Source: Tubiluchus corallicola | Taxonomy: Eukaryota > Animalia > Priapulida | Length of the DNA stretch: 64,000 nt | Assembly: GCA_030141605.1 (NCBI GenBank) | Contig: JAQGDQ010000322.1 | Coordinates: 186,001 to 250,000, forward strand | Reading direction: 5' to 3' | Part shown: piece after piece, positions 25,751 to 27,519 of the stretch | How the letters are laid out: each line of letters opens with the position of its first letter | How positions within the stretch are numbered: the stretch's first letter is position 1 | Translations under genes and position numbers: made by a program | The notes under the pieces: generated by a model | Database searches by the model: none | Told to the model about the DNA's origin: nothing | Seen by the model: the letters and a program-made list of their open reading frames with translations, nothing else

Positions 25751-26266
25751 TCACTTCTCATTCTTGTAGTTAAAAATATTAGGAGGTAAAGCAAGCTGTG
25801 AGGTAAGACACTGATTAAGAACTTCTAGCAAATGATTGTTCTCTAATGCAGCAGCTATTCTTTCCTTATCTGCTAGTTGCTTGTTAATTGCATCTTCGGA
25901 TACGTGAGTTCCTGGAGTGATTGAGACCGTAACTTTAAAACGAGACGGTAACACTCGCAGCAGCTTCACTCTGATTGACAATCCGATCAGTGTTGCCATG
26001 CTACAATGAGGTATAGTCGGAGTAAACTCCACATTCACCACGTTGGCATCATTATCCACTTCAACGCGCGACTGCTCGATGACATTTAGCGTTTCCAGCG
26101 ATAATGGATGCTCCGGATCTTTTATTATGCGGAGATGGTCAAATATCTCTCGGCAGTCGATCGGATCGGAAATGTCATTATCAAGCTCTTCTTCAAGTAG
26201 CTCGCGTTCTTTTAGCGCTTCATGAATCGTGGGGTTATAATTCTGCAATCTGTCACTTTCTTCCAT
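25751..26266 (-). CDS. CIAO2B: Cytosolic iron-sulfur assembly component 2B (FAM96B/MIP18), 171 aa, intronless CDS
   Basis: [84 protein letters not shown]2B-type signature. Confidence 0.96.
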
Positions 26267-26276
26267 CTCTCATCAA

Positions 26277-27135
26277 TCTGCAATTGAACGAAATAATAGT
26301 GATAACTACTACAAGTACTATAATGTGTAACACAGTAAGTTAATTTTCATTGATACCTACAGTAATTAAACATCCTTAATGTAGCATCATTAATATACAG
26401 TTAAGTATACAACTTTGAAGCACACATGATTCATGTATTCAGAAACAAATCTGCGAGCATGACACAGTTTATTACTTACTCATCTCAGTGTGATATTAAT
26501 AGCTCTGTTAACCCATCCTTCCTGTTTTCCCACTGTTATCTTCTTTCTAACTACTAACACTTCCAGTTTTTTCCAACACTAACCTCTTTCCAGTCCTCTG
26601 TCAGAATGCACAAGATCATCATTTACTTTTGGCAGTCAAACAAAATAAATAAAATCTATTCGATGTATTAGTATTACTGTATATTATCTATCTATGTACT
26701 TTTCGTTATAAAACTTGTAATTATTTTTCTTTAATGCGGAAATTAATGCTACATTACAATAGCTCCAAAACCCAGACTTCCTCTCTGTTATTATTTTTCG
26801 ACTTTTACTCTTTCTGTAGTCTTTAGCACTTCTTTAGCTTCATACTCATATAGCTCAAATAGCGTAAATAAATAAACTTGACCCAAGTATTAAATAGAAA
26901 TAATCAAATCCAAATACCAAAATGACAATCTTGTCGGTAAACCAGAATATGGTTGTGGGTGGTAACCAATACGTTCGTGAACAATTTCTTGGCGAGATTT
27001 TTGAGGCACTGGCAAATTGGCTTCAGACTTGTCTGTTGTTTTTGATTTTCGTTGTTCGACCTCCTTTCTTAAGGTATCGTATTCTTCAAGATCCTCTAAT
27101 TTTAATTCAATTCTCGTGGGGTTTCGACGAATCAT
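26277..27135 (-). CDS. CDC26: Anaphase-promoting complex subunit CDC26 (APC12); 72 aa if spliced (27135-26918 + 26277), 81 aa if unspliced (stop at 26890)
   Basis: MIRRNPTRIELKLEDLEEYD is the CDC26 N-terminal motif; ERIGYHPQP matches the conserved RIGYKP motif. A splice acceptor lies at 27182. The 3' end depends on the predicted splice. Confidence 0.92.
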
Positions 27136-27519
27136 TACACTGACAATAATGTCTCGTGTTATTTCAATACCCACTAAGTTTCTACAGGATACATAAACGC
27201 ACAATGGGGAATCTTTCAATTACGCTTGTTTCAATCGGTGTTTACGCAAGACAACCATTCAACGGTTTTGCATGTCAGAATTAAAAGGACAAAATGCACA
27301 AAAAGATAATGACTTCTGTCGGTCTTCACTTATTTACACCACCACCACTACAATTATATATTTATGTATAATATTATCATCATTGTATTCGATTACTGAG
27401 CTTAACTAGTTTAATTTATTATAATTTTGCTGAGTGGAGTCTACACAAAACTCGACCCGAGCTCTACAGAATGATATTGTCTCAGAAAGTATGTGGATCC
27501 TCAAATTGCATGATTCTGA

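Follow-up and report, generated by a model that had tools for sequence, protein, structure and literature searches.

In the 64,000-nt stretch of Tubiluchus corallicola DNA analyzed here (the window), CDC26 is followed in tandem, 651 nt further along the minus strand, by CIAO2B, which has no introns (Table 1). The CDC26 reading frame starts at 27135 and comprises 81 residues when left unspliced. Its product carries the Pfam domain ANAPC_CDC26 (E 7.9e-11; 43.1 bits against a cut-off of 24.5), and its closest homologues were P0001 (72 aa, 90% identical) and P0002 (75 aa, 75%). P0001 in turn matched human CDC26 with E 7e-13, in keeping with membership of the CDC26/APC12 family, and a search of the ESM Atlas returned CDC26 clusters only. 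The product of the second frame contains the FeS_assembly_P domain (Pfam, E 1.2e-10). Named CIAO2B proteins are 69–72% identical to it and its best named matches are CIAO2B/galla-2, which places it in the CIAO2B/MIP18 family; among the matches listed, P0006 was the closest CIAO2B (95%). Both frames are intact and conserved, each with its own start and stop, separated by a short predicted spacer and not fused. As the second frame encodes CIAO2B and not TTM3, the locus is not the CDC26–TTM3 locus of plants.

Upstream, PRPF4 (30798 to about 50350, plus strand; one exon with E 7e-42) stands head to head with CDC26, an order that we take to be the same on human chromosome 9. Candidate donors of non-coding first exons at 30569 (plus) and 30672 (minus) would make the 5′ ends of PRPF4 and CDC26 overlap. 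That the donor at 30672 ends a non-coding first exon of the CDC26–CIAO2B unit is speculative, and an in-frame ATG just upstream makes this model doubtful. On the other side, an IMP3-like gene (19117–24570, plus; Pfam S4), which is multi-exon here, converges on CIAO2B and stands head to head with a SNAPC1-like gene (14141, minus); both gene names are our assumption. A 5S rRNA gene (21616–21734, minus; 107.5 bits) within an IMP3 intron was the only Rfam match between 14000 and 33000. Between the 3′ ends of CIAO2B and IMP3 lies a very high-copy dispersed element (24980–25515), at which the summed depth in sequencing run X1 reached up to about 30,000. Tandem minisatellites occupy 22800–23540 (IMP3 intron) and 33100–36400 (PRPF4 intron), the latter giving rise to long spurious Cys-rich ORFs and false Pfam matches, and a short inverted repeat with long hairpin-like arms was found by eye at 31890–32090 in PRPF4 intron 1.

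Table 1. Features of the CDC26–CIAO2B locus (window coordinates)
Feature	Position	Strand	Remarks
Upstream donor GTAAGT (30672)	30667..30675	-	8.4 bits, highest of the upstream minus-strand donors; near PRPF4 start
Candidate acceptor upstream of CDC26 leader	27182	-	4.9 bits
CDC26 exon	26918..27181	-	CDS 27135-26918 (72 codons + TG of stop); 46-nt leader behind candidate acceptor; putative 5′ end
Predicted donor GTATTT in CDC26 stop codon	26912..26917	-	rank 2/60 GTs; 5.3 bits; 5/9 U1 matches
Predicted intron, 640 nt, GT-AG	26278..26917	-	14 ATGs inside
Candidate alternative exon, 118 nt	26480..26597	-	weak acceptor 26598 (2.8 bits); donor GTAAGT 26479 (4.0 bits)
AATAAA directly past the 26479 donor	26468..26473	-	may serve as poly(A) signal for CDC26-only transcripts
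Predicted acceptor, strong, 11 nt ahead of CIAO2B ATG	26278..26297	-	rank 1/61 AGs in gap; 9.5 bits
A completing TGA, then 10-nt spacer	26267..26277	-	two TGA codons in CIAO2B frame
Decoy ORF, 6 codons	26253..26273	-	weak start context, T at -3, A at +4
CIAO2B/MIP18 CDS	25751..26266	-	intronless, 171 aa; start context G at -3, G at +4
AATAAA x2 (25736, 25720) past CIAO2B stop	25715..25736	-

A preliminary description of the window had proposed that splicing itself creates the CDC26 stop codon. The donor (TTG/GTATTT at 26917, minus strand), the acceptor AG ending at 26278 and the 640-nt gap between them were all found as claimed. Joining 26918 to 26277 reproduced the proposed outcome: the junction TG/A is a stop, CDC26 ends with PTRLSF after 72 aa, and the CIAO2B ATG (26266) follows the 10-nt spacer in another frame, while the decoy ATG indeed opens only six codons. 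Retention of the intron gives CDC26 a hydrophobic tail of nine residues (81 aa). A CDC26–CIAO2B fusion protein was ruled out, because the CIAO2B frame is closed by two stops within the spacer; a CIAO2B domain was found in none of six longer CDC26 matches, which is weak evidence.

For splice-site scoring, crude matrices were derived from exons of the neighboring genes PRPF4, IMP3 and SNAPC1, in which 14 donors and as many acceptors were chosen by eye from the reading frames. Left out one at a time, the true neighboring donors scored 1.2–8.4 bits, a range that includes the donor at 26917 (5.3). The top-ranked GT of the gap has T at +3, a base found there in none of the 14 real donors. GTAT donors were confirmed elsewhere in the window at exons of neighboring genes (GTATTG, 10366, minus; GTATAA, 30982, plus), and the quality ascribed to the acceptor at 26278 stood, no other of the 61 AGs in the gap being as good. 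Sites equal to or above it numbered 37 in 128 kb of both strands, and 1.9% of random 60-nt stretches held an acceptor as good (null 0.0185). Folding of the gap gave z = 0.72.

Furthermore, P0001 and P0002 both stop at the Phe that precedes the split codon and lack the tail of the 81-aa unspliced form, and the three close proteins agree in each of their final seven residues. This C-terminus supports the donor but cannot choose the acceptor, because an acceptor at 26598, ranked sixth of the 61 AGs, likewise completes TG/A and gives the same C-terminus. Neither this second acceptor nor the GTAAGT donor at 26479 had featured in the preliminary description, which had pointed to the minus-strand AATAAA at 26473; that signal is indeed present, directly behind the 26479 donor. 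The donor at 26917 might thus also, or mainly, be joined to 26598, yielding a 118-nt exon. This exon would either be closed by the poly(A) signal at 26473, giving a CDC26-only mRNA, or be joined through the donor at 26479 to CIAO2B. Both sites of this exon lie within the score range of real sites, and its use would account for contigs carrying one ORF alone; monocistronic forms are also made at 114 of 159 fly dicistronic loci (PMC4528330; papers are cited by PMC number for the parts available to us). We nevertheless consider this route unlikely, given the rank of the 26598 acceptor, the two upstream ATGs that the exon adds, and the location of the acceptor in a 36–40 nt stretch matched by other X1 contigs, i.e. 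a dispersed repeat. Records 6–8 of that run match 26578–26617, and the acceptor may be a repeat remnant. In the longer bicistronic form, the last junction would fall 117 nt past the CDC26 stop, which would render it sensitive to nonsense-mediated decay (NMD).

P0001 and P0006 are each encoded on a single contig of 1671 nt, and from this equal length we infer that both probably share one contig of a close relative; the names found for their protein clusters did not point to a common locus. If this contig is spliced RNA, it nearly proves the junction-made stop in that relative. The length also fits an unspliced or genomic piece (a span of about 1385 nt plus 290 nt of flank); on the genomic reading, the stop is written in the relative's DNA and may have been lost from the window genome. 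Sequencing run X2 yielded two contigs, one within each CDS and neither near the junction. They have D20E, T34S and N40S in common with P0001 and T59M in common with P0006, and differ from P0001 by T21S, V26F and D35E; the shared variants are consistent with both proteins coming from one close relative. In runs X1 and X2 no joint was detected in 25690–27440, where X1 covers the gap apart from 26870–27440 and the X2 contigs lie away from the junction; the joints that were detected fall in repeats outside both ORFs. Against the model, the 958-nt contig of P0002 had no full-length close CIAO2B among the best 120 of 4047 matches, and the 1054-nt contig of P0126 no CDC26 among eight candidates.

The genomic interpretation leads to an account in which the relatives have a genomic stop codon that a single base change has removed from the window genome, or that an assembly error hides there, leaving an 81-aa CDC26 and a GT that is mere coincidence. 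A common RNA of both genes, unspliced or differently spliced, would still be compatible with it. A single transition turns TGA or TAG into TGG, the 1671 nt suit an unspliced piece, the 26917 donor is only of moderate strength, and the tail might be tolerated, given that CDC26 is represented in the solved structure 3hym by its first 29 residues only. Loss of the stop would, however, need three coincidences, namely a T after the changed codon (forming the GT), an A at +3 and a best downstream acceptor beginning with A. Since the invariant final seven residues also speak against it, we regard this explanation as improbable.

Two separate mature mRNAs might also be made, either because transcription of CIAO2B begins within the gap, at a short non-coding first exon, or because the pair forms an operon that is cleaved behind CDC26 and then receives a spliced leader at 26278. 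All five window genes have an acceptor-like site 11–46 nt ahead of the ATG (null fractions 0.26, 0.17, 0.019, 0.21 and 0.019; combined by hand, p is about 0.005), and the AATAAA at 26473 and the donor at 26479 are both in place. However, 5′-UTR introns account for acceptors ahead of an ATG equally well, the end of CDC26 would still have to be explained by a splice or by stop loss, and 1671 nt for both partners suggests one continuous sequence. Moreover, cis-splicing is usually favored when an upstream donor sits on the same pre-mRNA. Flatworms, tunicates, chaetognaths and Hydra have operons that are resolved by spliced leaders (PMC7986045), and the locus resembles these in its tandem genes and in the acceptor just ahead of the downstream ATG. 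In contrast to those operons, whose mature mRNAs are monocistronic, the locus seems to need a cis donor to finish the upstream protein. We therefore think it improbable that the two proteins are made from separate messages.

Our preferred explanation, to which we assign a probability of roughly 60%, is a single spliced bicistronic mRNA in which intron removal completes the CDC26 stop and puts the CIAO2B start 10 nt further on. That the two genes share an mRNA of any form appears likely. The bicistronic reading of the preliminary description gained indirect support from the C-terminus of the homologues, the 1671-nt contigs of both partners and the splice-site ranks, with the splice itself being predicted. 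In the single-message model, ribosomes would load at the CDC26 cap and a part of them would initiate at the CDC26 AUG, whose context is moderate (G at −3 and A at +4), giving the 72-aa APC/C subunit, whereas the remainder would scan past this start and the weak decoy and initiate at CIAO2B, which has the stronger AUG. By judgement we prefer such leaky scanning over reinitiation by about 2:1. There are no ATGs between the CDC26 start and the junction, compared with three within the initial 216 nt of the CIAO2B frame and two to five in six neighboring exon segments. With a codon table from six of eight segments (two left out for frame errors), this absence was not significant given the protein (P = 0.28), and internal Met is absent in 31 of 133 CDC26 representatives (filtered from 146). 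At position −3, CDC26 has G and the three other window genes all have A. At such loci of green algae, leaky scanning is the driving mechanism; reinitiation is lowered by a longer ORF1 and raised by a short spacer (PMC11291117). We counted it against our preferred explanation that the second ORF of the fly lmgA–lmgB mRNA is without detectable translation (PMC3372440).

With the last exon junction at the first stop and no introns in CIAO2B, no junction would lie 3′ of either stop, and the mRNA is consequently predicted to escape junction-dependent NMD. An intron exactly in the CDC26 stop codon would thus keep the message safe from decay while letting one splice control both proteins. An NMD-immune architecture has been proposed for polycistronic mRNAs (PMC3951408). 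Like the human transcripts described there, the predicted mRNA leaves no exon junction uncovered beyond 55 nt 3′ of a stop; unlike them, its predicted last junction coincides with the first stop itself.

The CIAO2B CDS extends over 516 bases without an intron, compared with a mean of 128 nt for neighboring exons (P about 0.02; 13 exon lengths, read by eye). CIAO2B is presumably multi-exon ancestrally, and an intronless CDS among intron-rich neighbors suggests a processed copy. Such a copy could have landed behind CDC26 and been captured by the splice, which would account for the layout. No target-site duplication was found, the longest flanking direct repeat (7 nt) being at chance level; duplications are expected to decay in old copies. 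The preliminary description had seen in the pairing a link between the APC/C and an Fe–S/mitotic function, which our data did not support: CIAO2B was beside CDC26 at none of 22 other animal loci, and the neighbors vary by lineage. The pairing is probably one of convenience, by way of a common housekeeping promoter, and not a pathway link.

CDC26 is the first ORF of a bicistronic mRNA with TTM3 in plants and green algae (PMC7943633, PMC11291117) and is called monocistronic in most eukaryotes (review PMC7943633). As at these loci, for which leaky scanning and NMD have been implicated, a short CDC26 would come first on the predicted mRNA and a protein unrelated to it second. The locus described here differs in being from an animal, in its partner, in the predicted stop at the last exon junction and in the intronless ORF2. 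Also comparable are Drosophila lmgA (Apc11)–lmgB and Tfb5, in which a small complex subunit likewise comes first, followed after a short spacer (89 and 54 nt) by an unrelated partner (PMC3372440, PMC2276209, PMC4528330). The lmg locus is intronless and its lmgB dispensable, whereas the second ORF of the window encodes a conserved housekeeping protein. Fly dicistronic loci comprise 159 pairs and 350 genes, including lmgA/Apc11 and Tfb5 (PMC4528330). No publication on the pair CDC26 and CIAO2B (FAM96B) was found in the literature, and among the matches listed for bicistronic or dicistronic CDC26 there was no animal CDC26 locus by title or abstract. For a search of fly loci we used Cdc26 and galla together with CG17343, CG3457 and CG7949, which we assumed to be the appropriate CG numbers. 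None of the five gave a match in the files from 2 onwards of the PMC4528330 supplement, and neither CDC26 nor CIAO2B is mentioned in the main text of PMC13303939, a study of 14 polycistronic transcripts from human.

A metagenome scan provided 22 CDC26 loci out of 436 pattern matches; many of these loci are short, and their contigs are not single molecules. To look for the pair beyond close relatives, five CIAO2B proteins were compared by tblastn with these 22 loci, many of them short, and no match was found. A long ORF begins 7–177 nt past the CDC26 stop at seven of the 22 loci: PSME4 at L001 (18 nt), DNA2 at L016 (7 nt), an RNase T-family exonuclease at L020 (first ATG at 22 nt) and a C2H2 protein with a Pfam match below the cut-off at L002, L007, L008 and L009 (106–177 nt). 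We take the exonuclease to be oligoribonuclease-like and the C2H2 protein to be ZNF511-like. As L007–L009 are 96–98% alike, these amount to five independent loci with four partners. The remaining 15 loci, several of them short or interrupted by introns, have no such ORF within 200 nt.

Directly upstream of CDC26, six of the 22 loci carry TFB5 (GTF2H5) within the exon that also holds CDC26, with distances from the TFB5 stop to the CDC26 start of −1 (L001), 76 (L002), 16 (L003), 52 (L008), 41 (L009) and 65 nt (L022). L003 retains the TFB5 intron, and its 16-nt spacer is without AG, so no acceptor can part the two ORFs there. L002 and L008, which lack the TFB5 intron, look like spliced RNA contigs with three ORFs. 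The order is TFB5–CDC26–zinc finger at L002, L008 and L009 and TFB5–CDC26–PSME4 at L001, and the intron-free contigs are candidate tricistronic mRNAs; at L001 the CDC26 start is atypical and the TFB5 join may be misassembled. In L016 (3745–5983), a 55-aa CDC26 is followed 7 nt on by a DNA2 start in GCCACC context, with an intronless MIOS upstream, and L020 (87–1032) has an intact exonuclease ORF after CDC26 on a contig without introns. The CDC26 ORFs of the metagenome loci hold one to six internal ATGs, a poor fit to leaky scanning.

From these arrangements, tight multi-ORF units with CDC26 appear to be recurrent in animals. The preliminary description had CDC26 serving independently as an upstream ORF, which is fair relative to plants, but within animals such use does not appear to be a one-off. 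Tentatively, and at less than even odds, CDC26 might be a nomadic cistron that shares mRNAs with unrelated housekeeping genes across animals, as with TTM3 in plants, and the capture of CIAO2B through a stop-codon intron would show how such units arise. Its partners would be CIAO2B in the window and PSME4, DNA2, the exonuclease and the zinc-finger protein elsewhere, with CDC26 standing second after TFB5 in the three-ORF messages.

Should the bicistronic mRNA prove real, it would be a convergent animal counterpart of the plant CDC26 bicistron and contradict the published view that most eukaryotes have a monocistronic CDC26 (PMC7943633). It would also offer a test case for the dosing of two essential proteins from one animal mRNA, for NMD as a force shaping intron positions in polycistronic genes, and for the origin of new polycistronic units. 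The surprise is limited, since flies already have many two-ORF mRNAs that encode small subunits (350 genes, PMC4528330), and the interest lies in the split stop together with the sign of repeated entry of CDC26 into multi-ORF units in animals.

The locus also carries a warning for annotation: CDC26 is easily hidden as the ‘UTR’ of a longer neighbor, and a genomic call here yields the wrong C-terminus. An ancient split-stop intron was considered for P0005, which extends P0127 by W-Y much like the unspliced window protein, and was rejected because a comparison of P0138 with metagenome locus L010 showed such a W to be a TGA read as Trp. The extension of P0005 resembles the spacer of L001. The database CDC26 proteins P0005, P0136 and P0138 are overextended, the gene caller having taken TGA as Trp.
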